From a bacterium (GTDB lineage: Bacteria; Patescibacteriota; Patescibacteriia; Patescibacteriales; UBA12465), in the NCBI GenBank assembly GCA_021806615.1, contig JAJZRB010000001.1, positions 143,201 through 207,200 of the forward strand: a stretch of 64,000 nt of DNA. Direction: 5' to 3'. The position numbers and the translations under genes are program-made. Within the stretch, counting starts at the first letter, position 1; each line of letters begins with the position of its first letter. The notes below the pieces were generated by a model. It did no database searches, was not told where the DNA came from, and saw nothing but the letters and a program-made list of their open reading frames with translations. Shown here piece after piece: positions 28-59,375 of the stretch.

Positions 28-801
28 TTATAAATCAGAAATTTCTAGAATGAGCGGGTAGTGGTCTGAAATTTCAATTTCTTCAACCGTCATTTTCCGA
101 GCTGACAATCCTTGGCTCAAGAATATGAAATCAATCGCCTCGCCCTTAGGCCGAGTGCTAGGAATATTAAAAATGGCATTGATGTTATTAAAATGCTTAC
201 TGATCAGAGAAATGCTTTCCGTCCTTAAAAGAACATTAAAATCTCCGAGCAGGATACTGGGCATATTTTTCTCCTGTAATCTTTCGAGAATGAATTCGCT
301 TTGCCGGATAGACCGCTCTGAATCCAGTTTATCAGCAGACCAAGTGCCGTGGACATTAGCCACTTGGATGATGCTCCCGCCGACTTCAATATCGCATATT
401 TGCAGAGCGCGGCCGTGATCGTCACCGTTATAAAAATTGGTCCGATCGCGGTCAAATTCATAATTTTTGTGATAAAAATAATTATAGCCGTGGACGATCG
501 GATATTTTGATAAGATCAGCTTGCCTTGCTCGACCATGCCGCCGAAATCTTTGTTTCTTAATCCGGATGGTTCGGTATGCTTATCAGCGACCCATTCGGG
601 AGCGAAAAAATAATAAGGATAATCTTCCCCTAATATCCGCCGAATGGTTTCTTCCGATCGATACAGAGGATGTACGTTTGGATCCAATGGACGGACGACT
701 TCCTGCAAACAGACGATATCCGCGGCTTGAGCCTTCAGATATTCGCCGACTTGCCGGCTGTTATCTATCTTAATACCAATATTAAAGCTGATGATTTTCA
801 T
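28..801 (-). CDS. endonuclease/exonuclease/phosphatase (EEP) family protein
   Basis: 257-aa ORF. The N-terminal MKIISFNI..ADIVCLQEV and C-terminal ..SDHYPL pattern is typical of the EEP/DNase I-like fold. Confidence 0.8.
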   Translation of the reverse strand: MKIISFNIGIKIDNSRQVGEYLKAQAADIVCLQEVVRPLDPNVHPLYRSEETIRRILGEDYPYYFFAPEWVADKHTEPSGLRNKDFGGMVEQGKLILSKYPIVHGYNYFYHKNYEFDRDRTNFYNGDDHGRALQICDIEVGGSIIQVANVHGTWSADKLDSERSIRQSEFILERLQEKNMPSILLGDFNVLLRTESISLISKHFNNINAIFNIPSTRPKGEAIDFIFLSQGLSARKMTVEEIEISDHYPLILEISDL

Positions 802-859
802 ATTATGGCTATTTCCCTATATTAGACTGACATAATTTATTATAGCATTCCCCTCATAC

Positions 860-880
860 AAAAACAGCCCTTTCGGACTG
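860..880 (-). terminator. hairpin plus T-run after the cupin unit
   Basis: Minus-sense CAGTCC-GAAA-GGGCTG followed by TTTTTG. It lies 12 nt downstream of element E copy 1. Confidence 0.6.
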
Positions 881-892
881 TCTCTGTTTAGT

Positions 893-920
893 GAGCTCCT
901 TTTGGAGTTTGGTTATAAAT
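893..920 (-). repeat. 28-bp element E, copy 1
   Basis: gagctccttttggagtttggttataaat, identical to copies at 1409-1436 and 3089-3116. It lies 21 nt after the cupin stop codon. Confidence 0.9.
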
Positions 921-941
921 TTAGATAAATAGAAACTAAGC

Positions 942-1295
942 TTATTCAGTTCTCTCCGTTATTTCTTTATTTGGATCATAAGCGGGGGTATGGACTAAAA
1001 ACATCTTTAATACTCCGTTTATGGATTTATAATCATATTCAATATTTTTAGGAAGAATACAGACGTCCGACTTAGCAACATGAATTATTTCGTTATTAAT
1101 TTCAAATTCGCCCTCGCCGTCGATAATATAATAAATTCTATCACTTTCTGTAGCCTTGGTTTTACCATGACTGCCAGTAACTTCGAAATAGGCAGCGCTT
1201 GCTCTAGGAAATTCTTCTTTGGAGTTGAAGGCCCACCCCTTTAAGCCATTCCAGCCGAACTCTCGCGCATTTTTAAGTGTAAATTTCATATTCAC
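942..1295 (-). CDS. cupin domain protein
   Basis: 117-aa ORF with a single beta-barrel pattern (..YFEVTGSHGKTKATESDRIYYIIDGEGEF..ILPKNIEY..) resembling small cupins. Confidence 0.6.
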   Translation of the reverse strand: MNMKFTLKNAREFGWNGLKGWAFNSKEEFPRASAAYFEVTGSHGKTKATESDRIYYIIDGEGEFEINNEIIHVAKSDVCILPKNIEYDYKSINGVLKMFLVHTPAYDPNKEITERTE

Positions 1296-1374
1296 TTTTT
1301 ATATAAATTACATTTTTATTATATCATTTGAGGTAATTTTTATAAACTTTTCAAAAAGGTGTTTCTAGAGTATC

Positions 1375-1400
1375 AAAAAATGCCCTAAGATTAAGGCATT
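1375..1400 (-). terminator. hairpin plus T-run after the 228-aa ORF
   Basis: Minus-sense AATGCC-(10 nt loop)-GGCATT followed by TTTTTT. Confidence 0.6.
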
Positions 1401-1408
1401 GTTTGTTG

Positions 1409-1436
1409 GAGCTCCTTTTGGAGTTTGGTTATAAAT
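1409..1436 (-). repeat. 28-bp element E, copy 2
   Basis: Perfect copy located 5 nt after the TAG stop of ORF 1442..2128. Confidence 0.9.
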
Positions 1437-1441
1437 TAATA

Positions 1442-2128
1442 CTATTCATAATTAAGAATTATACCTTGCCCTCCTATAACAAAACCATTTCTATTACTTA
1501 AAGTTTGCTTCTTGGGATAATCTGGAACCAAGGTACGCAACAACTCATGAGTTATCTGCCTAATTGCAGCTAATTCTGCTCCTTTCACTGGTATCCATTT
1601 ATCACTGTAATCTCTGGAAACCCAGCCCAATGAATTGCTTCTACTAAGGCTTGCATATTTTTCATTTAATTCAGGGTCTACATGAGAACCGCCGTCTTGA
1701 TTGGCTACCGCAAGGACAATATCTTTGCGACTATAGCTATTCCCCAGCTTGTCATTAAAAATTATTTCACTCCAGTAATTCTCAAAGTCTATATACCCAG
1801 TAATATCGTTGGATGAATCGAAGTTTGGCACATAACCGCCAGCGTCTCCTATGAGTAGCCCGACCAATCCTGCATACCCTCCGACTAGCTGTTGATTGTC
1901 TGAAAGTTTTGGTGGCTTTACACAAGTACTTAAGAATTTAGTATCCTTTAAATTTAACTGACCCAACAATGAGTGTGATTTAAGCGTGTCATGTAAAAGA
2001 ATCCTTATAGTCGTCGCCATTCTTTTTGATTCCGATTCAAAACCTCTATCATACGCCTGGGCGGACAACTTCAAAAATTCAATTTGATCATTTAGCTGAT
2101 TTTGGAGATCGTCTAATGTTTGTTTCAT
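1442..2128 (-). CDS. hypothetical protein (228 aa), coupled to HEPN-like paralog A
   Basis: Long ORF whose start lies 10 nt after the stop of ORF 2139..3002. No family recognised. The C-terminal ..AAIRQITHELLR.. is only Rx3H, so it is not a canonical HEPN motif. Confidence 0.6.
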   Translation of the reverse strand: MKQTLDDLQNQLNDQIEFLKLSAQAYDRGFESESKRMATTIRILLHDTLKSHSLLGQLNLKDTKFLSTCVKPPKLSDNQQLVGGYAGLVGLLIGDAGGYVPNFDSSNDITGYIDFENYWSEIIFNDKLGNSYSRKDIVLAVANQDGGSHVDPELNEKYASLSRSNSLGWVSRDYSDKWIPVKGAELAAIRQITHELLRTLVPDYPKKQTLSNRNGFVIGGQGIILNYE

Positions 2129-2138
2129 AAAACCAATA

Positions 2139-3002
2139 TTATAAACTGACGTGTGGCAAAAAATCTAAAGATATTTTTTTAAATAAAGAAAGAAGATTCC
2201 CCTTTATCATCTTGCAATATTCAAACATGTCTGTACCACTCGGTAATTGAGGATTACGTAATATTTTTTTTCTATTATCTAAAACGAAAAGTTGTAGGCT
2301 ATAGACTTTTGATCGATGGGCGACCATATTGCGTAACTTATGAACCTCATCGATCCAATTATCAATCTCTGTCTCAAAAAGATCAGCTAATTTTCTTTCT
2401 TTGACTCCTTTACTCGCTCGTAAACTGGCGATAGTCTTCTCTCCAGCTTTTTGCCCACCTCTAAATCCGATTATCCATTCCTCTCCATCAAGACATGGGT
2501 AAAATATTTTCAAAAGATGAATTAGTACATCAAGAGAAGAATATACTTGCATTAGAAAGGATTCAAACTCAAACAGAATAACGTCATTAATAAATTCAGT
2601 TTCTGATAAATTCATAGGCAATTTCTCATAAACCGGGGGGACTAAATTTTTTATTTCATTCTCAATTAGGGAAAAACTGTAATTCACGGCTTGCATTTTA
2701 TGTCGGCAGTTTTCAATAGCAATATCCAAATTGTTCATTTTTTTATTATCCTTTAATTTACGTACAAATATGCCATTTAAAATTTTTTGCTCGTCAGAAT
2801 TTAAAACTGAATCTAAATCAGACATGGTTTTATTTACCGATTTATTTAAAACTTCTTTTTCTTCATCACTAATCCTAAAACCATCCATTCCCAAGTCTAT
2901 ATCCGAAAATAAGCCTACCGACTCTCTTCTGTACTGATCAAATCTAGAATCTGATAATAAGAGCTTGTCTCTCATAATGTTATAATAACTATCTTCTGGC
3001 AT
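2139..3002 (-). CDS. HEPN-like (RNxxxH) protein, paralog A
   Basis: The track ORF 2139..3155 was trimmed to Met52 (ATG at 3002). The longer form reads through a terminator hairpin and element E, and the trimmed N-terminus (MPEDSYYNIMRDKLLLSDSRFD) aligns with paralog B (MSRYKIMKDKILFSDRRFD). Shared motifs are ENCRHK, YSxxLIENE, ExESFxxQV, AGExT and LRNMVAHRS (R-N-x3-H). Confidence 0.7.
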   Translation of the reverse strand: MPEDSYYNIMRDKLLLSDSRFDQYRRESVGLFSDIDLGMDGFRISDEEKEVLNKSVNKTMSDLDSVLNSDEQKILNGIFVRKLKDNKKMNNLDIAIENCRHKMQAVNYSFSLIENEIKNLVPPVYEKLPMNLSETEFINDVILFEFESFLMQVYSSLDVLIHLLKIFYPCLDGEEWIIGFRGGQKAGEKTIASLRASKGVKERKLADLFETEIDNWIDEVHKLRNMVAHRSKVYSLQLFVLDNRKKILRNPQLPSGTDMFEYCKMIKGNLLSLFKKISLDFLPHVSL

Positions 3003-3031
3003 ACTATTAATTTTTTTAAAAATTAAAATAC

Positions 3032-3054
3032 AAAAACCCTCATTACGAGGGTTT
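3032..3054 (-). terminator. hairpin plus T-run after HEPN-like paralog B
   Basis: Minus-sense AAACCCTC-GTAAT-GAGGGTTT followed by TTGTATTTT. It is preceded by a second perfect palindrome, GGGGGTTTATAAACCCCC (3064-3081). Confidence 0.65.
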
Positions 3055-3065
3055 CTGTAGTCTGG

Positions 3066-3092
3066 GGGTTTATAAACCCCCGTAAATGGAGC
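3066..3092. repeat. 27-bp imperfect direct repeat, distal copy (DR-L)
   Basis: gggtttataaacccccgtaaatggagc matches 6222-6248 (ggatttataaatccccctatatggagc) at 23 of 27 positions in the same orientation. Confidence 0.7.
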
Positions 3093-3116
3093 TCCTTTTG
3101 GAGTTTGGTTATAAAT
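3089..3116 (-). repeat. 28-bp element E, copy 3
   Basis: Perfect copy. It overlaps the last three codons (P-Y-L) and the TAA stop of ORF 3109..3930. Confidence 0.9.
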
Positions 3117-3930
3117 ATGGCTCGTCGGAAATCCTTTTAAGTTCTGGCGAGACAAAATTGTCTAAAATAGTCTTATATAGATTCAGTAATTTATTGTATA
3201 TATCTTGACAATATCTAAGCACTTCCGTGTTATCAGGCATTAACGGTTTAACTACTTTTCCGCTACCAGATTCATAGACAAAACACGTAAAGCCCTTAAG
3301 CGCGGATCTATGGACTATATTATTACGTAATTCATTTAAATTCTGAATCCAAGTGTCTATTTGTTCATCAAAAAATTCTGCCATTTCAGAATTACCACCT
3401 TTTCTCACGAAATCGGCGGTAGTTTCGCCCGCCCTTCTGTCGCTCTTAAAACTTGCTTTATCATTACCTCTTTCATCAATATAAGGGTACAAGTATTTTA
3501 AAAGCTGCACAATAATATCTAAATTGCCTCGCACTTGAGATACGAATGATTCAGTTTCATTTATAAGCACTTCATTCATTAACTCTGCATATGGAAACAT
3601 CTTATTTTTTATCATTTCGGAATATTCTTCTATCTCCTGTTTAGTCGGCCCAAAGTTAACTTCATTTTCAATTAAAGCTAGAGAATATCTTGCGGCAGCT
3701 AACTTGTGTCTACAATTTTCTACTCTTACTCTTATATCATCTAGTAATTTTGATATTGCGATATGCTTTCCCGTGCCCGCCTCTTTCGTTGTGCGAGGTG
3801 GCCTATAAAACCCCTCTATTGGCATATCAAAAATTTTATTAATCTCCTCATAAACTGTATCAAATCTTCTGTCCGAAAACAGTATTTTGTCTTTCATAAT
3901 TTTATAGCGGCTCATATTAGTAAAAATCAT
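3109..3930 (-). CDS. HEPN-like (RNxxxH) protein, paralog B
   Basis: 273-aa ORF, a divergent paralog of 2139..3002, with LRNNIVHRS (R-N-x3-H), ENCRHK and ETESFVSQV motifs. An alternative start is Met6 at 3915. Confidence 0.7.
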   Translation of the reverse strand: MIFTNMSRYKIMKDKILFSDRRFDTVYEEINKIFDMPIEGFYRPPRTTKEAGTGKHIAISKLLDDIRVRVENCRHKLAAARYSLALIENEVNFGPTKQEIEEYSEMIKNKMFPYAELMNEVLINETESFVSQVRGNLDIIVQLLKYLYPYIDERGNDKASFKSDRRAGETTADFVRKGGNSEMAEFFDEQIDTWIQNLNELRNNIVHRSALKGFTCFVYESGSGKVVKPLMPDNTEVLRYCQDIYNKLLNLYKTILDNFVSPELKRISDEPYL

Positions 3931-3957
3931 CTATACAATAAAAGTCAGATTCCTTAA

Positions 3958-4245
3958 CTACTTGATAAAAGGAATTTTATCTAAAATATATCTTCTTTTT
4001 CTTTCTAACTCCTCGAAAATAAATTTATTTTTTTCTTTAATCTGTAAAATGCGTCCGTCCATAATACTCTGAAGGACCGGCTTTTGCTTCTCTGCCTCTA
4101 TCGCATTGTTTAATTCCTTATACTTAATTTTTAAGTCTCTTTCAATTATAACTACTCGCACATAGGACATTACAACATGAAAAATTGCTAAAACGGCAAA
4201 TAATTTTAAAAAATAATCTACATATTTAAATACAATGGTGAGCAT
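3958..4245 (-). CDS. small membrane protein (N-terminal TM helix plus charged coiled-coil tail)
   Basis: 95-aa ORF, 27 nt upstream of paralog B and 17 nt downstream of ORF 4263..4760. It has a hydrophobic FLKLFAVLAIFHVVMSYVRVVII segment followed by a K/E-rich helix. Confidence 0.5.
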   Translation of the reverse strand: MLTIVFKYVDYFLKLFAVLAIFHVVMSYVRVVIIERDLKIKYKELNNAIEAEKQKPVLQSIMDGRILQIKEKNKFIFEELERKRRYILDKIPFIK

Positions 4246-4262
4246 ATTTCAAAAGCTAAATT

Positions 4263-4760
4263 CTAGGTTCTTTTTTGCCAAAACGCTACGATAGCTAAAA
4301 TTATTGTCCCAACTGCCATTATCCAGGTGCCGAGCACCAGCCAGAAATTCATTTTACGCTGATTTTTCAGAGAATCAATGGCAGTATATTCTGCAGTTGA
4401 TATTTCATAACCACACAAATTACAGACAACGGTGGACGGATATGATTTTTCAGAAGTTTGTACAAAGGGCATGCGCTGGATAAATTTATGCTCACATCCA
4501 TTAACCTTAGATTGATTTTTTATAATACTAATTTCTCTCACCCCGAACTCTGTTATTCTTATGGCTCCATCTTCTCCCCAAATTATTTTTCCGCTATCAG
4601 CCATTCGGCGCATAAGAGCCTTAAATTTAACCATCTGAACATAATCACCACCTTTAACAAACTGATTTTCAAGTTTAGGATAAATTTGATTAAATTGAGG
4701 GCCGACTTCTTCGTTAATAATTTTAATTTGTTCTAAAATTTGCATCTCTTTTTCTTCCAT
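4263..4760 (-). CDS. C-terminally membrane-anchored protein with a CxH...CxxC zinc-ribbon-like motif
   Basis: 165-aa ORF with ..NGCEHKF..(22 aa)..VVCNLCGYE.. and a terminal TM helix FWLVLGTWIMAVGTIILAIVAFW. No family recognised. Confidence 0.55.
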   Translation of the reverse strand: MEEKEMQILEQIKIINEEVGPQFNQIYPKLENQFVKGGDYVQMVKFKALMRRMADSGKIIWGEDGAIRITEFGVREISIIKNQSKVNGCEHKFIQRMPFVQTSEKSYPSTVVCNLCGYEISTAEYTAIDSLKNQRKMNFWLVLGTWIMAVGTIILAIVAFWQKRT

Positions 4761-4820
4761 ATTTATAAACAGATTAACGCTTAAATTATTTTGATGTACT
4801 TATATCATCCCAATCATCGG

Positions 4821-5276
4821 TTATTTGCCACTTGGGTTATTATCTAATATTTTATAGGACAAATTTACATCCAACGGTGTCTCCGAAGCAACTTCAAATT
4901 TAGTACCTTTTTTTTGTAATATTCTATAGTAATATCTCCCACCCTCGGTTATCTGTATGCCCTGCATGTTTGTTATACTTCTTAATCTCTTTTCACCTTT
5001 TTTTGCCTTTAGGCCAACGGAAAATTCATTTAAAACTTCTCCCTTAGGATCCACGAGATCTATCTTTATTTCAGCTAAATTTTCCCTTGTATCGTCTTCG
5101 ATAGTCCAAAAACTAATAAGCTGAAGATTAAAAGGAATAACTAGCTTATCATTTTTAGACATCTTTTTCCTATCAATCATTAACTGCACTTCTTCAATAC
5201 AGTTAAATAAACTAAGGAGATTGGTTTGAGCATCTATTGATGATTTTTCACAAATTATTGACCAAATGTTTTTCAT
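4821..5276 (-). CDS. hypothetical protein (151 aa, predicted all-beta)
   Basis: ORF starting 11 nt after the XRE gene stop. No motif recognised. Confidence 0.5.
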   Translation of the reverse strand: MKNIWSIICEKSSIDAQTNLLSLFNCIEEVQLMIDRKKMSKNDKLVIPFNLQLISFWTIEDDTRENLAEIKIDLVDPKGEVLNEFSVGLKAKKGEKRLRSITNMQGIQITEGGRYYYRILQKKGTKFEVASETPLDVNLSYKILDNNPSGK

Positions 5277-5287
5277 ATTTTTATTAT

Positions 5288-5698
5288 TTATTTAGTAGAT
5301 ATATTATAAGCCTCATGCGATAAAACGTTGTCCCTTAATCTATCAGCGGTGTTATTTATCGTCCCACCGCCTGCGAATATAATGTTATATGGGATATTAA
5401 AATCTAAAATACTACTCCAGCTTTTATAACTAAAATTTAAAACACTTGCTATTCGATTAAGCAGTGCAAAACCAATATTAACATCTCCGCTCTCAACTCT
5501 TGAAATAACCTTCTGAGTCGTTTGAGCTTCTTTAGCTAACTTTTGCTGACTCATACCAAGAGCTTCTCTGGTATTATAAATCTCAACTCCCAACCTTATT
5601 CTTTCCATTGCTTCTCTTGAAAATTTTTCAAAATACTTACCCTTTCTGGCCTCTGCCATCGGATCAATATTTAATTTTTTGTTATTCATATTTTTCAT
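5288..5698 (-). CDS. XRE-family helix-turn-helix protein (HigA-like antitoxin candidate)
   Basis: 136-aa ORF. The HTH_3-type segment is ..LGMSQQKLAKEAQTTQKVISRVESGDVNIGFALLNRIA... It overlaps the upstream toxin-like gene by 17 nt. Confidence 0.75.
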   Translation of the reverse strand: MKNMNNKKLNIDPMAEARKGKYFEKFSREAMERIRLGVEIYNTREALGMSQQKLAKEAQTTQKVISRVESGDVNIGFALLNRIASVLNFSYKSWSSILDFNIPYNIIFAGGGTINNTADRLRDNVLSHEAYNISTK

Positions 5699-6107
5699 AA
5701 TTTTTTGGATTTAATTTAAAAATATTTAAATACTTCTCACCAATCTTGTTTTGTTTATCAACTTTTTTCTTCTCTCTGTCGGTATCATAATTGACAGGCT
5801 TCTCAAAAGCATGAAGAAGAACTATTTTTTCTTGATGTCGAAAATAAAGAATTCTAATAACTGTTGTTTCGTCTTTGGGATTCAATATTTCAAAACAACT
5901 ATAGCCATGTAATGGTTTAGAAATTGGAGGAGTCGGCCTACCTTCGTTGCCCTTAACATGCTGTATCTTAGCATCTATATTAGCTAGTATTTTCTGCTTT
6001 CTTTTAACAACTGCTTCTTTATCTCCTTTGTTTTCTCGATATTGTTTTAAATATTCCTTTACCGGGCAGTTTTTTGAACCTTTATCATAAAAATAAACAG
6101 GTTCCAT
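5682..6107 (-). CDS. RelE/HigB-like toxin of the Gp49 (DUF891) type
   Basis: 141-aa ORF. ..PVKEYL..AKIQHV..KPLHGYSCFEI..IRILYFRHQEKIVLLHAFEK.. follows the Gp49/RelE pattern. The toxin-first order matches higBA-type pairs. Confidence 0.7.
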   Translation of the reverse strand: MEPVYFYDKGSKNCPVKEYLKQYRENKGDKEAVVKRKQKILANIDAKIQHVKGNEGRPTPPISKPLHGYSCFEILNPKDETTVIRILYFRHQEKIVLLHAFEKPVNYDTDREKKKVDKQNKIGEKYLNIFKLNPKNYEKYE

Positions 6108-6136
6108 ATTTACATGATTAAATTGATTCTAACCTT

Positions 6137-6164
6137 ATTATATCCTATTGGATATAATTGTCAA
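6137..6164 (-). promoter_or_regulatory. near-consensus sigma70-type promoter with an embedded palindromic operator
   Basis: Minus-sense TTGACA (6164-6159), a 16-nt spacer, then TATAAT (6142-6137). A perfect inverted repeat TTATATCC-n4-GGATATAA (6138-6157) spans the spacer and the -10 element. Confidence 0.7.
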
Positions 6165-6172
6165 TACCAATT

Positions 6173-6200
6173 ACAAAAGCCCTCCCAAAATGGGAAGGCT
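6173..6200 (-). terminator. terminator of the tmRNA/tRNA-Leu/tRNA-Gly unit
   Basis: Minus-sense AGCCTTCCC-ATTTT-GGGAGGGCT (9-bp stem including one G-U pair) followed by TTTTG. Confidence 0.75.
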
Positions 6201-6221
6201 CTTGTAAACACTGGGACTTAT

Positions 6222-6248
6222 GGATTTATAAATCCCCCTATATGGAGC
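6222..6248. repeat. 27-bp imperfect direct repeat, tRNA-proximal copy (DR-R)
   Basis: It matches 3066-3092 at 23 of 27 positions. Positions 6243-6248 are the GCTCCA 3' terminus of tRNA-Gly. Confidence 0.7.
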
Positions 6249-6317
6249 GGGTAACGGGAATTGAACCCGTCTCTCGACCTTGGCAAGGTCGCATAATAGC
6301 CACTATACGATACCCGC
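6243..6317 (-). tRNA. tRNA-Gly(GCC), CCA encoded
   Basis: Hand-folded cloverleaf with acceptor GCGGGTA/TACCCGC, anticodon arm CGACC-TTGCCAA-GGTCG and T arm ACGGG-TTCAATT-CCCGT. Confidence 0.9.
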
Positions 6318-6420: not shown

Positions 6421-6433
6421 TCTTTTGTCAATG

Positions 6434-6822
6434 TGGAGATGATGGGAGTTGAACCCATGTCCAGCCGGCTTACCTAAATACATTTACAAGATTAGGCCGA
6501 TTTCGTTTGTTTTAACTTTAATCATCAAAACCGGACGAAAAGCGACTAAAGCGATCTTTCTTTTGTTTCGACATACCCCGGAAAGAGCAAAATATATCTA
6601 TCCTCATGTTTATGACACCGGAAATGCGACTATGAAGACTCATCGCGCCCGATGGTTACGGCTTATTTTTATTAGGCCATAACTGGAGCATAGCTCGGAG
6701 TTAACCAAGTAAATGCTCTTGCCATAGATTTGGCATTTGTGTTTTTTTAGCCAGTTTGGCGTGATGACTAAGCACGTCCTGAATATTTAGATAGAATCCA
6801 GCTGTCGATTCCTTTCATCCCC
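6434..6822 (-). ncRNA. ssrA: tmRNA
   Basis: The 5' GGGGATG pairs with the 3' CATCTCC and includes G3-U70. The T arm is ATGGG-TTCAACT-CCCAT with discriminator A. An internal reading frame ends in TAATAA. It lies 26 nt downstream of smpB. Confidence 0.85.
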
Positions 6823-6848: not shown

Positions 6849-7307
6849 TTAACGCCTTTTTGTTAAAGACCGCAAACTGCGCTCTACTTCTCGTTTTTTT
6901 ATCGCCTCGCGCTTATCATATTTCTTCTTTCCGCGCGCTACGGCGAACTCCAATTTCAGAAAACTATGATTAGTATATATTTGGAGAGGTATCAGTGTCA
7001 AGCCCTCGGTTTGCTGCCGGCCGATAAGGCGAGCGATCTCTCCCCGCTTCAATAATAACTTCCGTTCACGCCGGGGATCGTAGTCTGGTAGGGGACCGGC
7101 CTGCTTATAAGGCGAGATCTGGCAACCGATTAAATAAAGCTCCGGCCGGCTGTTTTTACGGCGCACGCTTATGAAGCTGCCCTTGAGGCTGAGTTGCCCG
7201 GCGCGGACTGCTTTGACTTCGTGGCCATACAGAACCAGGCCCGCCTCATATTTTTCCAGGAGCTCATAATCAAAGCTAGCTTTCTTGTTTTGCGCCAGTG
7301 GGGCCAT
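6849..7307 (-). CDS. smpB: SsrA-binding protein
   Basis: 152 aa with the ..NKKASFDYELLEKYEAGLVLYGHEVKA.. signature. It is adjacent to the tmRNA. Confidence 0.95.
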   Translation of the reverse strand: MAPLAQNKKASFDYELLEKYEAGLVLYGHEVKAVRAGQLSLKGSFISVRRKNSRPELYLIGCQISPYKQAGPLPDYDPRRERKLLLKRGEIARLIGRQQTEGLTLIPLQIYTNHSFLKLEFAVARGKKKYDKREAIKKREVERSLRSLTKRR

Positions 7308-10669: not shown

Positions 10670-11998
10670 TTATTCTTTTTTAGTTTTTTTTAAATTTTTA
10701 TTTTTGGTCTTCTTTTCGATCGGCGCCTTTTCTTCGGTTTGCTCTGCTGCCGCTTCTGGCACAGTCTCAACTTCAGCTTCTGCCGGATTGGACTGGACCC
10801 CCTCCTCAGCCTCGTCGCTGCTTAAAACCTTTTTCTCACCATCCTCTGAAGCTTCTATAATATCTATTTTCCAGCCAGTCAATCTCGCAGCTAAGCGGAC
10901 ATTCTGTCCGGCCTTACCAATAGCTAGAGATAGTTTATCAGGAGAAACTTTGACTATAGCTTTATGCTCCACATTATCAAGCTCTATAGACGCGACTTTA
11001 GCCGGAGCCAAGGAATTAGCTATGAATTTGGCAGAGTCTTCATTATATTCAATAATATCTATCTTTTCCCCTCCCAATTCACTGATGATAGTCTGGACGC
11101 GAGAGCCTCTCTGGCCGACGCAGGAACCGACCGGGTCGACATTATCAGCGTCCGTCCAAATAGCAACCTTAGACCGTGATCCTGCCTCCCGAGCTACGGC
11201 TTTGATTTCCACCAAGCCATTCGCTATTTCTGGAATTTCTAAATAAAAGACTTTGCGTAAAATTTCTTCGGAGCGGCGGGACAAGACTATTTCCGGCCCC
11301 TTATGCCCCTCACGCACTTCCTTTATAAAGACCTTGATCCGATCATTAGGATTATAGCGTTCGCTGTAAATTTGTTCTTCGGCCGGCAAGATGCCTATAG
11401 CCTTGCCTAAGTCAACAAAAACAAAGCGCCCTTCACGCCGTTGGACGATACCGGAAACAACCTCTCTTTCCTTGCCTTTGAATTCGCTAAATACCATATC
11501 GCGCTCCATCTCCCTCAACTTCTGAATGATAACCTGCTTGGCGGTCTGGGCGGCCATGCGGCCATAACTTTCTGGAATGGGCAAATCAGTCACTATCTCA
11601 TCGCCGATCTGGGCGTCATGCTTTAAGATCAGGGCCTCCTTGATTTGGATATCGGTTTTGGGATTGAATTTTTTCTTGTCTTCTTCGCCAGAGCTCTCTT
11701 CAATAAAAACTTCCGGACGGCCTTCTTCGCGCGGCGGCTCCTTCGGAGCCGGGCTATAAAGATTCTGCAACATTTCGGCTTCTTCTTGTTCTGGCAGATT
11801 ATCTACTACGGTTTTGACATCAAAAATCTGCGAATGGCCGGTCGCCGGATCAAATTTTACTCGTATATTCTGATTTCGTTCCCCATAATCTTTGCGGTAA
11901 GCGGCTGCTAAAGCGAGCTCGACCGCGCTGATAACGGATTGATAGTCTAAATTCTTCTCTTCGCACAATTGTTTTATAGCGCTGCTTATTTCGGACAT
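10670..11998 (-). CDS. nusA: transcription termination/antitermination factor NusA
   Basis: 442 aa with a NusA N-terminal domain, an S1 segment and two KH-like segments (..GSRVQTIISELGGEKIDII.., ..GKAGQNVRLAARLTGWKIDI..). Confidence 0.93.
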   Translation of the reverse strand: MSEISSAIKQLCEEKNLDYQSVISAVELALAAAYRKDYGERNQNIRVKFDPATGHSQIFDVKTVVDNLPEQEEAEMLQNLYSPAPKEPPREEGRPEVFIEESSGEEDKKKFNPKTDIQIKEALILKHDAQIGDEIVTDLPIPESYGRMAAQTAKQVIIQKLREMERDMVFSEFKGKEREVVSGIVQRREGRFVFVDLGKAIGILPAEEQIYSERYNPNDRIKVFIKEVREGHKGPEIVLSRRSEEILRKVFYLEIPEIANGLVEIKAVAREAGSRSKVAIWTDADNVDPVGSCVGQRGSRVQTIISELGGEKIDIIEYNEDSAKFIANSLAPAKVASIELDNVEHKAIVKVSPDKLSLAIGKAGQNVRLAARLTGWKIDIIEASEDGEKKVLSSDEAEEGVQSNPAEAEVETVPEAAAEQTEEKAPIEKKTKNKNLKKTKKE

Positions 11999-33944: not shown

Positions 33945-35069
33945 TTATTGTCTGATCGGCATTACTATATATAAGTATTTATCGTCTTTTTCCGGTTTTA
34001 ACAAACAAGGAGTAGTACTATTTAAAATATTGATTTTTACCCTTTCATCGGCAATATTATTTAAACCATCTATCAGATAGCGATAATTGATTGTTATCTC
34101 ATTATCATCGCCCTTGATATCGGCGAGAACTTCTATCTGGCTTTCGCCGCTTGCGCCGGAAAAAGCAGAAACAATAATTTTATTTTTAACGAAACGCAAC
34201 GCGACATCGTTGATACCGGTTTTAGAAAACAGCGCCGCCGCTTTAACCGCCCGGGATAATTCTTGTCGTTCAACCAAAACATCAGTTTGGCTCTTGACTG
34301 GAATAATCTGCTTATAATCCGGGTAGTGGCCGTTAATCAGCCGGGAAATCAGATCAACCGAGTCAACCGTAAATAATATTTGGTTTTCCGCCAAATAAAT
34401 TTTTAGTTCTTGTTCCTCGCTTTGTCCGCTACCATAAAAATTATTAAGCACTCTTAATAGTTCTTGGGTTGTCCTGGCCGGCACGATAACTTTATGTTCT
34501 TCATTTATATCCGACCCACTTATACTGATTTCTCTTTCCGCCAAGCGATAACTGTCCGTGGCCGCCAGGTGAAGGCTGTTTTTATTAAAAGAAAACAATA
34601 CGCCGGTCAACTCTACTCGGTTTTCACTTGTAGAAACAGCAAAAACTACGCTTTCTAAAGCTTTTTTAAAATCATCGGCTTGGCAGCTATAATAATTATC
34701 TTTAGGAATAGATGGTATCAGCGGAAACTCTTTTGACGACTCACCCTTTATTTTTGTTTTATAACTGCCGCACTCCACCTTTAATTCCCCGTCTTTCTCC
34801 TCTAATTTGACCTTTTCGCCGCCGCTCAACAAAGAAACATATTCGGATATCAGCTTGGAGTCTACGGTGAATTGTCCTTCCTGTTCTATCTTGCCGCGCA
34901 ACTGGTAAACTATGCCTATTTCCAGGTTAGTGCTAATCAACTCAATGTTCCCGTTTTCTGTTTTAATTAAGACATTGTTAAGAATCGGCAAGTTAATATT
35001 CTTAGCCGTTACATGCCCGACGATATTTAAACCCCTTTTTAAATTTTCTTGCAAGCTGATAAGACGCAT
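33945..35069 (-). CDS. dnaN: DNA polymerase III beta sliding clamp
   Basis: 374 aa, immediately downstream of dnaA, with a typical three-domain length and a ..MPIRQ C-terminus. Confidence 0.92.
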   Translation of the reverse strand: MRLISLQENLKRGLNIVGHVTAKNINLPILNNVLIKTENGNIELISTNLEIGIVYQLRGKIEQEGQFTVDSKLISEYVSLLSGGEKVKLEEKDGELKVECGSYKTKIKGESSKEFPLIPSIPKDNYYSCQADDFKKALESVVFAVSTSENRVELTGVLFSFNKNSLHLAATDSYRLAEREISISGSDINEEHKVIVPARTTQELLRVLNNFYGSGQSEEQELKIYLAENQILFTVDSVDLISRLINGHYPDYKQIIPVKSQTDVLVERQELSRAVKAAALFSKTGINDVALRFVKNKIIVSAFSGASGESQIEVLADIKGDDNEITINYRYLIDGLNNIADERVKINILNSTTPCLLKPEKDDKYLYIVMPIRQ

Positions 35070-35330
35070 ATGATTAGCTGCCTATTATATTATTAATTCT
35101 TTAATTAGTAATTAATAATAGTAATAAGGGCGGGGATAACTGTTTGTTTTTATATATTTTCTATTTTTTATTGGGAACTTTTAAGATTTTATAGTTAATA
35201 ACCTATAGTATTAAATGTTAATTGTTTTCGCGAGATTGTTGATAAATAAATTTGTTTTTTAATTATCAACAACTTATTATAACTTATCTCCCGGAAACTA
35301 ACAGCCTTTCAACAAGATATAAACATCTGG
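35070..35330. other. candidate oriC segment (dnaA-dnaN intergenic region)
   Basis: The noncoding stretch is very AT-rich. DnaA-box-like 9-mers are tgttgataa (35237-35245) and ttatcaaca (35263-35271), each 8/9 to TTATCCACA, plus cggggataa (35131-35139, 7/9). Confidence 0.55.
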
Positions 35331-36728
35331 TTAATAGGGCGTGTTAAAAAGCTGACGGATAGATTCGATTTCCTGTTTGGCCTTTTCATTGCCCTGTTCG
35401 GATATTTCTTGGTGGATTTTGTTATAAGAATGCATGGCTGTTGTATGGTCGCGGCCACCCAACTCCGCCCCGATCGTCGGGTAAGAGGTGCCTATTTCTT
35501 CCCGGATCAGAAAGATGGCTATTTGTCTGGGCCAAACCAATTCTTTTTTACGCCCCTTGCCGACTAAATCCTTATATGTCACATTATAAAATTTCGCTGT
35601 TGCTTCTATCACGTCTTTCGGGGTTAGTGATTTTATTTGAATATTGGAAACGTAGTCATTCAATATCTCCTTGACGCTTTTCAGGGTTGGCGCCACTCCC
35701 TTGAATTGATGAGAAACAATAACCTTAGTCAAGGCCCCCTCTAGCTCCCTGATGTTATTCTTAACGTGTTCCGCCAGATAAGCTAAAAGTTCCTTTTCCA
35801 TAGGAAAGCCTCGCTCAATAGATTTTTTTTCTAAAATAGCGATCTTAGTCTCAATGTCTGGCTTCCCCACATCGGCAACCATGCCAGATTCAAACCGTGA
35901 TATCAGGCGGCTTTCAATGGCCGGGATAGCTTTAGGTGGCCGGTCGGAGGTAAGGACTATCTGTTTGTCATTTTGCTGTAATTCATTAAAGGTGTGGAAG
36001 AACTCTTCTTGGGTTCCATCTTTTCCGCCCATAAATTGGACGTCGTCTACTAATAAGAGGTCGACATTGCGATAAAGATTTTTAAATTCTTTTGCTTTGC
36101 CGCTTTTTACCGCCTGGATATAATTATTGGTGAATTTTTCGCTGGTGACATATAGGATTTTATCGGTTTTTTTAGCCACCGCGTTTCCAATTGCTTGTAA
36201 TAAATGTGTTTTTCCTAACCCGACCCCGCCATAGATAAATAACGGGTTATAGGATTTGCCTAATTTATCAATAATGGCCAGACAGGCCGCATGGGCCAAT
36301 TCGTTTCCGCGTCCAACTATAAAATTTTCAAAGACGTAGCGCGGATTTAGTCCAAATTTATTAATACCATTATTGTTGTTTTCTGCCGGGGCGTTAAACG
36401 TCTCTTTTTTAACAGGAGGAATCTGTTTGTCTTCTTTGGAGTCTCCGTGACTGTTCGCTATAATCGTCCCGCCGGTTCGTCGTAATTCTATCTTATAGAT
36501 TATTTCTTTTATTTTCTGCTTGGTTATATTTTCTAAGGCGCTTAAAATATTCTTGTGGTATTTCTCTTCTAGCCATTTTTTAACGAAAGCATTAGGAACA
36601 CACACAATAACCCTGTCGTTCTCAAACGAAGAAATGAAAGTATCTTTAAACCAGGTTACGAAATTGGCTCTTGATAAATTAACCTCAATCTCGCCTAAAA
36701 CGGCCTGCCAAATTTGTTCGCTGTTCAT
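35331..36728 (-). CDS. dnaA: chromosomal replication initiator DnaA
   Basis: 465 aa with Walker A GGVGLGKTHLL and the C-terminal DNA-binding signature ..GGRDHTTAMHSYNKI... Confidence 0.96.
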   Translation of the reverse strand: MNSEQIWQAVLGEIEVNLSRANFVTWFKDTFISSFENDRVIVCVPNAFVKKWLEEKYHKNILSALENITKQKIKEIIYKIELRRTGGTIIANSHGDSKEDKQIPPVKKETFNAPAENNNNGINKFGLNPRYVFENFIVGRGNELAHAACLAIIDKLGKSYNPLFIYGGVGLGKTHLLQAIGNAVAKKTDKILYVTSEKFTNNYIQAVKSGKAKEFKNLYRNVDLLLVDDVQFMGGKDGTQEEFFHTFNELQQNDKQIVLTSDRPPKAIPAIESRLISRFESGMVADVGKPDIETKIAILEKKSIERGFPMEKELLAYLAEHVKNNIRELEGALTKVIVSHQFKGVAPTLKSVKEILNDYVSNIQIKSLTPKDVIEATAKFYNVTYKDLVGKGRKKELVWPRQIAIFLIREEIGTSYPTIGAELGGRDHTTAMHSYNKIHQEISEQGNEKAKQEIESIRQLFNTPY

Positions 36729-51670: not shown

Positions 51671-52810
51671 TTAATTTAAAGCATAGCCGGATCCAGTATT
51701 TTTAGCAAGTCCGGAGATTTCCAATATACTTAGTGTACTATTTATGGTTGCCGTGTCAAGTTCGGTTTTTTTGATTATTTCATCGGCCGTAATTACTTCA
51801 GCTCTGGCGGTGGCCCGTTTAATGAGATCGTAGACTATGGCCTCGACTTTATTATTCGGCCGGTGATTATTATTTTCCCCGGCTCTTATTGTCTTTTTTT
51901 TAAGTCCAATCTGAAAATTTTCCAGGATATCTTCAGCGCCGGTAACGACTCGCGCCCCGGCTTTTATAAGCTGGTTAGGACCGGTCGAGAGATCGGAAAA
52001 GATGTTTCCCGGTATAGCTAATACATCTCGATTCTGCTCTAACGCATAGTTGGCGGTAATCAGGGCGCCGGATTTGCCACGAGCCTCAACGACTAACGTA
52101 CAAGATGAAAGTCCGGATATAATCCGGTTGCGTTGCGGAAAATTTTGTTTATAGGGAGGCATATCGGGTGGGAATTCTGATATTATGGCCCCGCCTGAGG
52201 ATATTATGTCGGCTGCTAAGCGGCGATTAGCGCGAGGATAAAGGCAGTTATCGTTTAAACCAGATCCTAGGACTGCCAGTGTCCTACCCTGCGCTTTGAG
52301 AGCGGCGCAGTGAGCCAGGGTGTCGACGCCTAAAGCCAATCCGCTGACTATTTCAATACCTGCTGTTGCTACGATTGACAGCAATGTGGCGCTGATTTTT
52401 TCGGCATAAGCGGTTGGCCGGCGGGAGCCTACGACAGACAGGCGTTTCCGATCATGAGGGTCAGCCAGATTTCCTCTATAATACAAAATTGGCGGAGGAA
52501 CGCTTATTTCTTTAAGCATCTCGGGATAATCTGTTTCGCTCCAGGTGCAATAATTTATTTGTTTTTTTTCCAGGATATCCGGTATCCCATTAAGATTGAA
52601 AGTCTTACGCCAGACAACAAATTCTTCGCTGATCTTAGGGTTTAGCCCAGCCTCTATTAATCCTTGGCTATCAGCGCGCCAAGCATCGGCTAGGCTGGGA
52701 AAGAGTTCCTCTATCCTTTTTAGTCTCATCGGGCCTATTTTTTGGAAATGGTTAAAACCGAGATGATATAATCTATTTTCATAAAAGCCTCGGTTACTGT
52801 ATTTCAACAT
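51671..52810 (-). CDS. dprA: DNA processing protein DprA
   Basis: 379 aa with ..VVGSRRPTAYAEK.. and ..GLALGVDTLAH... Confidence 0.9.
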   Translation of the reverse strand: MLKYSNRGFYENRLYHLGFNHFQKIGPMRLKRIEELFPSLADAWRADSQGLIEAGLNPKISEEFVVWRKTFNLNGIPDILEKKQINYCTWSETDYPEMLKEISVPPPILYYRGNLADPHDRKRLSVVGSRRPTAYAEKISATLLSIVATAGIEIVSGLALGVDTLAHCAALKAQGRTLAVLGSGLNDNCLYPRANRRLAADIISSGGAIISEFPPDMPPYKQNFPQRNRIISGLSSCTLVVEARGKSGALITANYALEQNRDVLAIPGNIFSDLSTGPNQLIKAGARVVTGAEDILENFQIGLKKKTIRAGENNNHRPNNKVEAIVYDLIKRATARAEVITADEIIKKTELDTATINSTLSILEISGLAKNTGSGYALN

Positions 52811-56290: not shown

Positions 56291-56296
56291 AAAATG

Positions 56297-56367
56297 TCGG
56301 GCTGCCGGGAATTGAACCCGGATTACACGCACCCGAAGCGTGCGTAATACCGTTATACCACAGCCCG
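56297..56367 (-). tRNA. tRNA-Pro(CGG)
   Basis: Acceptor CGGGCTG/CAGCCCG, anticodon arm CACGC-TTCGGGT-GCGTG. Confidence 0.88.
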
Positions 56368-56388
56368 TTTATTCTAAATAACAGCGTG

Positions 56389-56461
56389 TGGACTTGAGGG
56401 GACTCGAACCCCTTACCTCTGCAATGCGAATGCAGCGCTCTACCAGATGAGCTACAAGCCC
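56389..56461 (-). tRNA. tRNA-Ala(CGC)
   Basis: Acceptor GGGCTTG/CAAGTCC with G3-U70, anticodon arm CTGCA-TTCGCAT-TGCAG. Confidence 0.88.
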
Positions 56462-56475
56462 GTTTAGCTTGATTA

Positions 56476-56549
56476 TGGTCGGGGTGCCGGGAATTGAACC
56501 CGGGCTACATGCACCCCATGCATGCGTACTACCGTTATACTACACCCCG
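56476..56549 (-). tRNA. tRNA-Pro(GGG), CCA encoded
   Basis: Acceptor CGGGGTG/CACCCCG, anticodon arm CATGC-ATGGGGT-GCATG. Confidence 0.88.

Positions 56550-57892: not shown

Positions 57893-59375
<1,483 letters not shown>

Follow-up and report, generated by a model that had tools for sequence, protein, structure and literature searches.

In pdif modules and in integrative mobile elements exploiting Xer (IMEX), small modules that often carry toxin-antitoxin or resistance genes are bounded by 28-bp sites, and the recombinase is supplied by the host. Tandem growth at one tRNA gene has been described for the tycheposon islands, where successive integrations push older elements inward (10.1101/2020.12.28.424599), and cis-mobilizable elements (CIMEs) are elements that have lost their integrase and kept their att sites (PMC5704250). 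The locus described here lies in a 64,000-nt stretch of a genome of the candidate phyla radiation (CPR, Patescibacteria, Falkowbacteria; contig JAJZRB010000001.1 of assembly GCA_021806615.1), which as a whole we call the window. A sequence of 28 bp (the 28-mer), GAGCTCCTTTTGGAGTTTGGTTATAAAT on the plus strand, is found there at 893-920, 1409-1436, and 3089-3116 (copies 1, 2, and 3), downstream of a tRNA-Gly gene. On balance, we favor the interpretation that integrase-less cassettes accrete at the tRNA-Gly and that the 28-mer is the arm of a site-specific recombination site which they carry. CPR bacteria have very small genomes and their gene exchange is little understood; this locus, next to tmRNA and tRNA-Gly, is a compact hotspot at which strains that are otherwise nearly the same differ in entire defense-type cassettes with base-precise borders.

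There is not a single mismatch among the three copies, and the similarity ends abruptly on both sides; copy 2 shares a run of 30 nt with copy 3 and one of 29 nt with copy 1. No fourth match exists in the 64-kb window even if three mismatches are allowed, and dinucleotide-preserving shuffles of the window gave none (0/100). In the independent assembly L005 (Logan SRR13189623), a stretch of 6.3 kb with all three copies is 100% identical to the window, so the three-copy arrangement is not an assembly artefact. All copies follow stop codons of minus-strand genes: the stop of a cupin gene (942-944) lies 21 nt ahead of copy 1, that of a 228-aa open reading frame (ORF; 1442-1444) 5 nt ahead of copy 2, and the TAA of a gene that we call HEPN-like B (3109-3111) inside copy 3. 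Read in this gene-sense direction, the 28-mer is ATTTATAACCAAACTCCAAAAGGAGCTC, followed by CA in copies 2 and 3; the sense-strand end is GCTCCA in these two, as in the tRNA-Gly(GCC) at 6243-6317, and GCTCAC in copy 1. Behind each copy there is a different hairpin with a T-run, detected by a terminator scan at 1400-1379 and 3059-3029 and by folding at about 885-855. Within the 28-mer there are a palindrome, GGAGCTCC, and a CTCC-AAAA-GGAG hairpin.

These results agree with an earlier description made from the letters of the window alone (hereafter, the sequence-only reading). It had reported three identical 28-bp copies at these coordinates within surroundings that lose identity, their placement 0-21 nt after the stops of the cupin gene, the 228-aa ORF, and HEPN-like B, and a different terminator behind each copy, which the terminator scan and folding now substantiate. 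The palindrome GGAGCTCC, the CTCC-AAAA-GGAG hairpin, and the presence of GCTCCA in two copies and at the tRNA-Gly end were likewise found as described. The last of these, a side remark at the time, turned out to be the key feature; the homology break falls exactly on GCTC(CA).

Our comparison took in eight related genomes or strains, and further syntenic loci were gathered via SmpB homologs. An exact 23-mer of the element occurs in 1 of 185,579 species-representative genomes of GTDB, Candidatus Falkowbacteria GW2011_GWF2_43_32 (L001, a 473-kb contig), in which approximate matching revealed a second copy with one mismatch. An exact 21-mer was retrieved from two JGI metagenome contigs, L002 and L003, of which L003 is the same contig as L001; the elements of L001 and L002 both sit just downstream of the tmRNA-tRNA-Leu-tRNA-Gly cluster. 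The strains L007, L008, and L011 (SmpB 99% identical to that of the window) have one copy with three mismatches and one perfect copy, and L012 (SmpB 88%) has a copy with two mismatches. Every copy found in relatives is at the same locus and in the same orientation. The 28-mer belongs to one variable region within a narrow clade, and when checked against the related genomes it proved to be confined to that locus instead of being spread irrespective of gene ends, the outcome that would have spoken against the sequence-only reading.

Dispersed repeats, i.e., repetitive extragenic palindromes (REP), bacterial interspersed mosaic elements (BIME), and miniature inverted-repeat transposable elements (MITE), were rejected, given that the three copies of the window are crowded into 2.3 kb, its remaining 61 kb having none, and that the copies of relatives are at the syntenic locus only. 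An origin from phages or plasmids was rejected as well, as none of the viral, phage, and plasmid scans gave a meaningful match. DNA-pattern scans of viral contigs found no match, or one chance match inside a helicase gene. The 103 nt that comprise copy 3 and the sequence behind it (leader C, see below) had no blastn match in phages and, in plasmids, only chance 35-nt matches in those of enterobacteria. Protein-guided viral scans with the 228-aa ORF, a 431-aa protein of L001, and an integrase of L013 had no matches either.

The evidence for recombination comes from what stands on either side of GCTC. We call "leader" the sequence after it, ACTAAACAGAGACAG in type A, CAACAAACAATGCC in B, CATTTACGGGGGTTTATAAACCCCC in C, CATATAGGGGGATTTATAAATCC in D, and CAATAAAAAAGAACAGG in E, each with a hairpin. 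Leader C comes after copy 3 in the window and directly after the tRNA-Gly 3' end in L001 and L012, to whose tRNA-Gly 3' flank it is 88-94% identical; in L004 it follows tRNA-Gly for 11 nt, up to the contig end. Leader A is preceded by a 28-mer in the window, L001, L002, L007, and L012, and directly by tRNA-Gly in L013, L014, L017, and L021-L023. In other genomes, the tRNA-Gly end is joined straight to leader A, C, or E. In alignments of the leader A and leader C junctions, the right side is homologous throughout and the left partner, tRNA or 28-mer, switches at GCTC. The 28-mer matches the 3' part of tRNA-Gly at 10 of 28 aligned positions, 4 of which are GCTC, and what they have in common is GCTC, in some cases followed by CA. 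Since the same flanks are found behind the tRNA end or the 28-mer, both are interchangeable partners at an exchange point inside GCTC(CA). This junction swap, together with the strain differences described below, supports the proposal of the sequence-only reading that the copies are cassette boundaries, with a site at the 3' end of each cassette.

The tRNA-Gly end itself differs among these genomes. CCA is encoded in the genome (GCTCCA) in the window (6243-6248), L001, L007, L012, and L014, while the end lacks it in L013 (GCTCAC, 11026-11032), L017, and L021 and in L002 (GCTCAA, 5396-5400), a single-base change exactly where cassettes are exchanged. We also considered whether the 28-mer could be a diverged 3' fragment of a tRNA or tmRNA and rejected it, because it fits no T-arm or acceptor register and has matches at only 10 of 28 positions.

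The 28-mer has the length of dif, its position after stop codons is like that of REP or attC sites, and the cassette organization is like that of integrons or pdif modules. Nevertheless, we regard it as extremely improbable that it belongs to any of these known classes (a REP/MITE dispersed repeat, an integron attC, or a Xer/dif-type site of the IMEX or pdif-module kind), considering that it is limited to one locus in all collections scanned and that all copies are in direct orientation. The sequence-only reading was right in that the element is not an attC: the RYYYAAC and GTTRRRY cores were not found in the 28-mer, in which the nearest strings are TTATAAC (5/7) and GTTTATA (4/7). In addition, the homology switch lies in the middle of a dyad (see below) and not at the 3' edge, the exchange is at GCTC(CA) and not between G and TT, and there is no IntI beside the array, with no Phage_integrase match in the cassette ORFs or in 20 other window ORFs scanned. 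An integron attC was therefore rejected for want of R''/R' cores, of an IntI, and of the proper exchange point. A Xer/dif-type site was rejected because there are no 11-6-11 inverted arms, the arms ATTTATAACCA and AAAAGGAGCTC having no inverted symmetry, and because the locus is about 30 kb from dnaA/dnaN (33.9-36.7 kb) and not at the terminus. These two genes (dnaN and dnaA, 33945-36728, minus strand) place the hotspot near the replication origin.

Comparison of close strains shows cassettes being present or absent as whole units. The match of L007 to the window (98.3% identity over 11,065 nt) stops exactly at the last base of tRNA-Gly (6243) and resumes at window position 1438, with 98.9% identity over 1,438 nt from copy 2 on. 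Between those limits there are 768 bp in L007 (leader E, a G+C-rich block, and a 123-aa gene) versus 4.8 kb in the window, and L008 and L011 are like L007. Of 2,522 positions aligned between L004 and the window, 3 are different, two of them in the last 11 nt of L004, which correspond to leader C and not to leader D after tRNA-Gly, so that the segment 6242-3087 (3,156 bp, cassette D) appears to be absent from this strain. The polymorphism is seen both in L007, L008, and L011 against the window and in the direct junctions of tRNA-Gly to leader C in L004, L001, and L012. Strain-specific DNA begins at the base after the tRNA-Gly CCA (window 6242), and the tRNA is intact according to ARAGORN and Rfam. 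Several assemblies break within or at tRNA-Gly, which is expected where coexisting strains diverge.

In the more distant L001, whose core DNA is about 71% identical to that of the window, the boundary units are far more conserved than the core genes. Identity reaches 97% over 69 nt in the 28-mer with leader A, and 88% over 89 nt both in leader C and in a variant 28-mer with leader B. The stems of terminator A differ, with compensating changes, and alongside them the 28-mer is invariant. The cargo behind the same leader is different from genome to genome: behind leader C there are HEPN-like A and the 228-aa ORF in the window, a 431-aa ATPase in L001 that matches the PADLOC candidate system PDC-S59 (E 8e-66), and a HEPN-like B homolog in L012; behind leader B, the cupin gene in the window and a 389-aa ORF in L001; and behind leader A in L001, a trypsin-like protease (PDC-S45-like).

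It seems unlikely to us that these units are passive, i.e., that the 28-mers and terminators are relics of an old duplication serving as portable homology for RecA-type recombination, slippage, or transformation-borne allelic replacement, with no dedicated recombinase. Such an explanation would fit the lack of a recombinase among the 30 scanned window ORFs and the presence in the window of a gene for DprA (51671-52810), a protein linked to natural transformation; direct repeats of 28-30 bp can support deletion, and the strain differences could be transferred by recombination in the flanking tRNA and cupin regions. However, only 4-7 shared bases underlie the junction of the tRNA end with the 28-mer, fewer than homologous recombination needs, and the outer edge of the 28-mer is sharp, at the same base, before seven unrelated cargo ends. 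Furthermore, the 28-mer is 100% conserved at about 71% core DNA identity, where a neutral relic would drift as the terminator stems did.

The same data bear on the other proposal of the sequence-only reading, a shared 3' untranslated region (UTR) motif, that is, an RNA element for stability, processing, or regulator binding kept by selection at the ends of transcription units. In the window the 28-mer is always between a stop codon and an intrinsic terminator, on the sense strand, and the 4-bp hairpin is present in all predicted folds. Yet the three natural variants (CTGC in L001, CCGC in L007, and AAAG for GGAG in L012) all break this hairpin without compensation, the element of L002 comes behind the upstream gene's own strong hairpin and U5, and an RNA function does not predict that the tRNA-Gly end replaces the 28-mer before the same flanks. 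Rfam 15 matches at the gathering threshold were limited to tRNAs, tmRNA, and 16S rRNA in the window, with none at E<=1 in 780-3200, so that a described RNA family was rejected. The 3'-UTR proposal was not borne out, given the broken hairpins, the placement in L002, and the lack of an Rfam match, and we consider it very improbable. A Shine-Dalgarno or small-ORF reading of AAAGGAG was rejected, since there is no start codon at a usable distance in any copy.

The features of the array are, from the tRNA-Gly outwards:

6243 to 6317, minus strand: tRNA-Gly(GCC), by ARAGORN and Rfam; last gene of the smpB-tmRNA-tRNA-Leu-tRNA-Gly block, with the 3' terminus GCTCCA (6243-6248) as the putative proximal, attB-like anchor.
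6168 to 6242, minus strand: leader D, CATATAGGGGGATTTATAAATCC with a terminator hairpin (6207-6171, terminator scan); aligns as a homolog of leader C.
3117 to 6167, minus strand: cargo of cassette D (ORFs, Pfam, promoter scan).
5682 to 6107, minus strand: Gp49-like toxin of cassette D (Pfam).
5288 to 5698, minus strand: HTH_3 antitoxin-like gene of cassette D (Pfam).
Within the cassette D cargo, minus strand: ORFs of 151, 165, and 95 aa.
3109 to 3930, minus strand: HEPN-like B of cassette D, with its stop inside copy 3.
3089 to 3116, minus strand: 28-mer copy 3, distal end of cassette D, followed by leader C.
3022 to 3088, minus strand: leader C, with CATTTAC, the palindrome GGGGGTTTATAAACCCCC (3064-3081), and a terminator (3059-3029, terminator scan).
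1437 to 3021, minus strand: cargo of cassette C (HEPN-like A and the 228-aa ORF), missing from strains L007, L008, and L011.
2139 to 3002, minus strand: HEPN-like A of cassette C, with a weak Abi_2/AbiD match.
1442 to 2128, minus strand: 228-aa ORF of cassette C.
1409 to 1436, minus strand: 28-mer copy 2, distal end of cassette C and right limit of the segment differing from L007.
1370 to 1408, minus strand: leader B, starting with CAACAAACAATGCC, and its terminator (1400-1379); the same leader is behind a 28-mer variant in L001 and L007.
921 to 1369, minus strand: cargo of cassette B, with a promoter-like site (1346-1318) and the cupin gene (942-1295).
893 to 920, minus strand: 28-mer copy 1, the terminal copy, with a counterpart before the same downstream flank in L001, L002, L007, and L012.
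845 to 892, minus strand: leader/terminator A, ACTAAACAGAGACAG with a hairpin and T-run (alignment, folding).

On the minus strand the order is trigger factor, smpB (7307..6849), tmRNA (6822..6433), tRNA-Leu, tRNA-Gly(GCC) (6317..6243), and the cassette array, which runs through the Gp49-like/HTH_3 pair, three small ORFs, HEPN-like B, copy 3, HEPN-like A, the 228-aa ORF, copy 2, the cupin gene, and copy 1; beyond it there is a gene of the endonuclease/exonuclease/phosphatase family. Expressed in cassettes, the array is tRNA-Gly, D (3,156 bp), C (1,680 bp), B (516 bp), and terminator A. The cassettes are co-oriented and small, yet each one opens with a terminator, and D and B have promoter-like sites: a perfect sigma-70-like promoter in D (TTGACA-16-TATAAT, 6164-6137), the sole 12/12 match in the region, and the site at 1346-1318 in B, which scores 10/12. 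The Gp49-like (DUF891) toxin and the HTH_3 antitoxin-like gene (5288-6164, minus strand) overlap by 17 nt behind the perfect promoter. The cargo of the cassettes is mostly of the phage-defense or toxin type.

Distant homologs of HEPN-like B (63% and 49% identical) are not beside tRNA-Gly and have no 28-mer. They end in ...EPYL* with TATTTGTAA (L024:5800-5815), as does the window at 3109-3122, which indicates that the first 8 nt of copy 3 (ATTTATAA) coincide with a native gene end; the cassette boundary at HEPN-like B may have formed at this ATTTATAA micro-similarity.

Farther along the window there is a full 16S rRNA gene (57894-59375, minus strand), with no 23S rRNA match in the window, including the 4.6 kb past its 5' end. 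Its neighbors are protein ORFs, and a tRNA cluster (56296-56549) lies about 1.3 kb off its 3' side; the rRNA genes appear to be unlinked.

Under the interpretation that we favor, a cassette in its unit form would consist of a leader with terminator, a cargo, often with its own promoter, and the 28-mer. In a circular form, the 28-mer would be joined via GCTC(CA) to the cassette's own leader in an attP-like site, and the circle would recombine with the attB-like 3' end of tRNA-Gly, the exchange point being GCTC(CA). Integration would yield tRNA-Gly followed by the leader on the near side and the 28-mer followed by the previous flank on the far side. By repeated entry the cassettes would be stacked, the newest at the tRNA and the older ones pushed downstream, each closed by a 28-mer. 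We infer that a dedicated recombinase acts in trans, that there is a circular intermediate, and that insertion is always tRNA proximal. The model explains why there are three copies, all in direct orientation and behind stop codons, and why different terminators come after them. It also explains the direct repeats of 30 bp that flank cassette C, the 7-bp repeat (GCTCCAT) that flanks cassette D, and the differing order of the A- and B-led units in L001 and the window.

The symmetry of the site suggests which kind of enzyme might be involved. Copy 3 and leader C form a 47-bp imperfect dyad (3069-3115) centered on GAGCTC, with two concentric inverted repeats, AAATGGAGCT/AGCTCCTTTT at 3084-3099 and TTTATAA/TTATAAA at 3069-3075 and 3109-3115. 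Both are centered at 3091.5-3092, the exchange point deduced independently from the junctions, and leader D has the same motif with the same spacing. In large serine integrases, the dimer contacts 50 bp of attP. Each half-site measures about 24-25 bp, its outer motif lying at roughly positions 16-24, and identity is required only at the central dinucleotide (PMC3783163). The locus resembles such att sites in its imperfect dyad of about 47-50 bp and in partners that share few central bases, here GCTC(CA). Read in this way, the 28-mer would be one half-site plus the center and TTTATAACC the outer motif, which would explain its sharp outer edge. On the other hand, the symmetry is found with C- and D-type leaders only, there is no convincing shifted outer motif in the tRNA-Gly arm, and no large serine recombinase gene was present among the annotated genes of the compared loci or the scanned window ORFs. 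The dyad and the few shared central bases weakly suggest a site architecture nearer to that of large serine recombinase att sites than to the classical sites of tRNA-targeting tyrosine integrases.

Tyrosine integrases of that classical kind do use the same tRNA-Gly in relatives. They are directly beside it in L013 (11034-12203, minus strand), L014, L017, and L021-L023 (10001 to about 11200, plus strand), are 76-84% identical between genomes, and in several loci are preceded by an HTH_17 excisionase-like gene. The last 12 codons and stop of the integrase are the opposite strand of leader A, the tRNA-Gly terminator. The one complete element (7.4 kb, L017) has a 21-nt tRNA-Gly repeat at its borders, and classical tRNA repeats of 17-21 nt are found at this locus in L017 and L002. 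These integrase-bearing relatives and the 21-nt-bounded element make the site a proven integration hotspot. Among the cargo of the integrase-bearing elements are an OLD-like TOPRIM/AAA_15 protein, RelA_SpoT, and a 1,373-aa protein with a faint NPHP3_N match. The L013-type integrase is not supported as the enzyme acting on the 28-mer, since its elements end in the 21-nt tRNA repeat and have no 28-mer within 10 kb, and tblastn against the window detected no copy or fragment of it, although a role in trans is conceivable.

The array could then be thought of as decayed integrase-bearing tRNA-Gly islands, with the 28-mer being the element-side sequence next to the attR of one family. The presence of such elements at the same site, the identity of terminator A behind copy 1 with the sequence overlapping their integrase stop codon, and the documented CIME route (PMC5704250) would be consistent with it. 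However, the known elements are bounded by the tRNA repeat and not by the 28-mer, strains with 98-99.9% identity lack cassettes D and C, too short a divergence for an integrase to decay, and the window has no integrase fragments by tblastn. Cassettes of 516 bp with the same sharp 28-bp end would also be hard to obtain by independent deletions, and we think that this scenario is quite improbable.

Two other types of sequence were noticed at this tRNA-Gly. A G+C-rich block of about 170 nt is directly behind the tRNA-Gly terminator in L007 (11100-11275, plus strand) and L002 (about 5185-5350, minus strand), in genomes that are otherwise A+T rich; it is not in the window. The two blocks are 78% identical, with two hairpins whose completely different stems are still paired (covariation), and have a folding z-score of -3.8 on the tRNA-sense strand and no Rfam match. 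The L002 block is closed by another copy of the 3' end of tRNA-Gly (ATTCCCGTTACCCGCTC), and for this reason it looks like a miniature integrated element with an undescribed structured RNA. Upstream of tRNA-Gly, L012 (11038-11700, plus strand) and L021 (11288-11950, minus strand) code for a 220-aa protein with an N-terminal HTH_23/Sleeping-Beauty-type HTH. In L012 the gene sits between tRNA-Leu and tRNA-Gly, which are 18 nt apart in the window, and it may be a small mobile insertion.

Several points weigh against a cassette-borne recombination site. A Pfam scan of 30 window ORFs identified no recombinase, nor was one found in or beside the array, and no circular or empty-site molecule was directly observed. 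Apart from the exchange point, the 28-mer and the tRNA-Gly arm are unrelated (10/28), which is unusual for tyrosine integrases, and the integrase-bearing elements have no 28-mer within 10 kb even with up to seven substitutions allowed. Leaders A and B form no dyad with the 28-mer. The number of independent genomes that carry the 28-mer is small (about five), and the evidence for the D-free variant consists of the last 11 nt of a contig. Finally, existing arrangements could be spread without a dedicated enzyme if DNA that has been taken up replaced alleles by homologous recombination.

If a recombinase for the 28-mer exists, it would represent a new cassette-capture system that explains the strain-level variation of defense genes in these bacteria, and the short, defined pair of recombination sites could be used for genetic tools in organisms that lack them. 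If there is no such enzyme, the locus would still be a clean natural example of short conserved boundary units organizing a defense island.

Among known systems, the tandems of tycheposons in Prochlorococcus and of integrative and conjugative elements (ICE), integrative and mobilizable elements (IME), and CIMEs in Firmicutes are similar in that insertion takes place at the 3' end of a tRNA or tmRNA and older units are displaced from the tRNA. Their integrase-less units also keep the boundary sites, and their adaptive or defensive cargo varies between close strains. They differ in being split by partial tRNA copies (typically about 40 nt), while the separator here, the 28-mer, has nothing but GCTC(CA) in common with the tRNA. 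The units of this locus are also much smaller (0.5-3.2 kb versus roughly 10-20 kb), lack integrases and replication modules, and reside in a CPR bacterium. Unlike in tRNA-associated islands, each unit brings a terminator right after the exchange point. From pdif modules and IMEX the locus is set apart by the lack of XerC/XerD-type 11-6-11 arms, by the direct orientation of all copies, and by its location at a tRNA near oriC and not at dif or on a plasmid.

The likeness to integron cassettes lies in the arrays of small co-oriented cassettes with one or a few genes, the site at the 3' end of each cassette, the newest cassette presumably being beside a fixed primary site, and a recombinase that is not on the cassettes. 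In contrast to integrons, the primary site here is the end of a tRNA gene, cassettes have their own promoters and a leading terminator, the exchange is at GCTC(CA), and there is no attC hairpin. A full-text literature search for integrons or attC in Patescibacteria gave resistome surveys only. As a tentative extension, possible rather than probable, the locus might be a tRNA-anchored integron-like cassette platform of CPR, in which the tRNA-Gly end would act as attI, the roughly 50 bp of the 28-mer and dyad-related leader as attC, and an unlinked recombinase, possibly of the serine type and not IntI, would shuttle defense or toxin cassettes from less than a kilobase to 3 kb, insulated by a terminator and promoter of their own, into and out of the array. 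Were this the case, cassette capture would have evolved a second time, independently, in minimal genomes with few known mobile elements. Taken as a whole, the locus is in its outcome a case of tRNA-anchored tandem accretion as known from tRNA-associated islands, and integron-like, and what is new are a separator that does not derive from the tRNA, integrase-less units the size of cassettes, leading terminators, and a CPR host.

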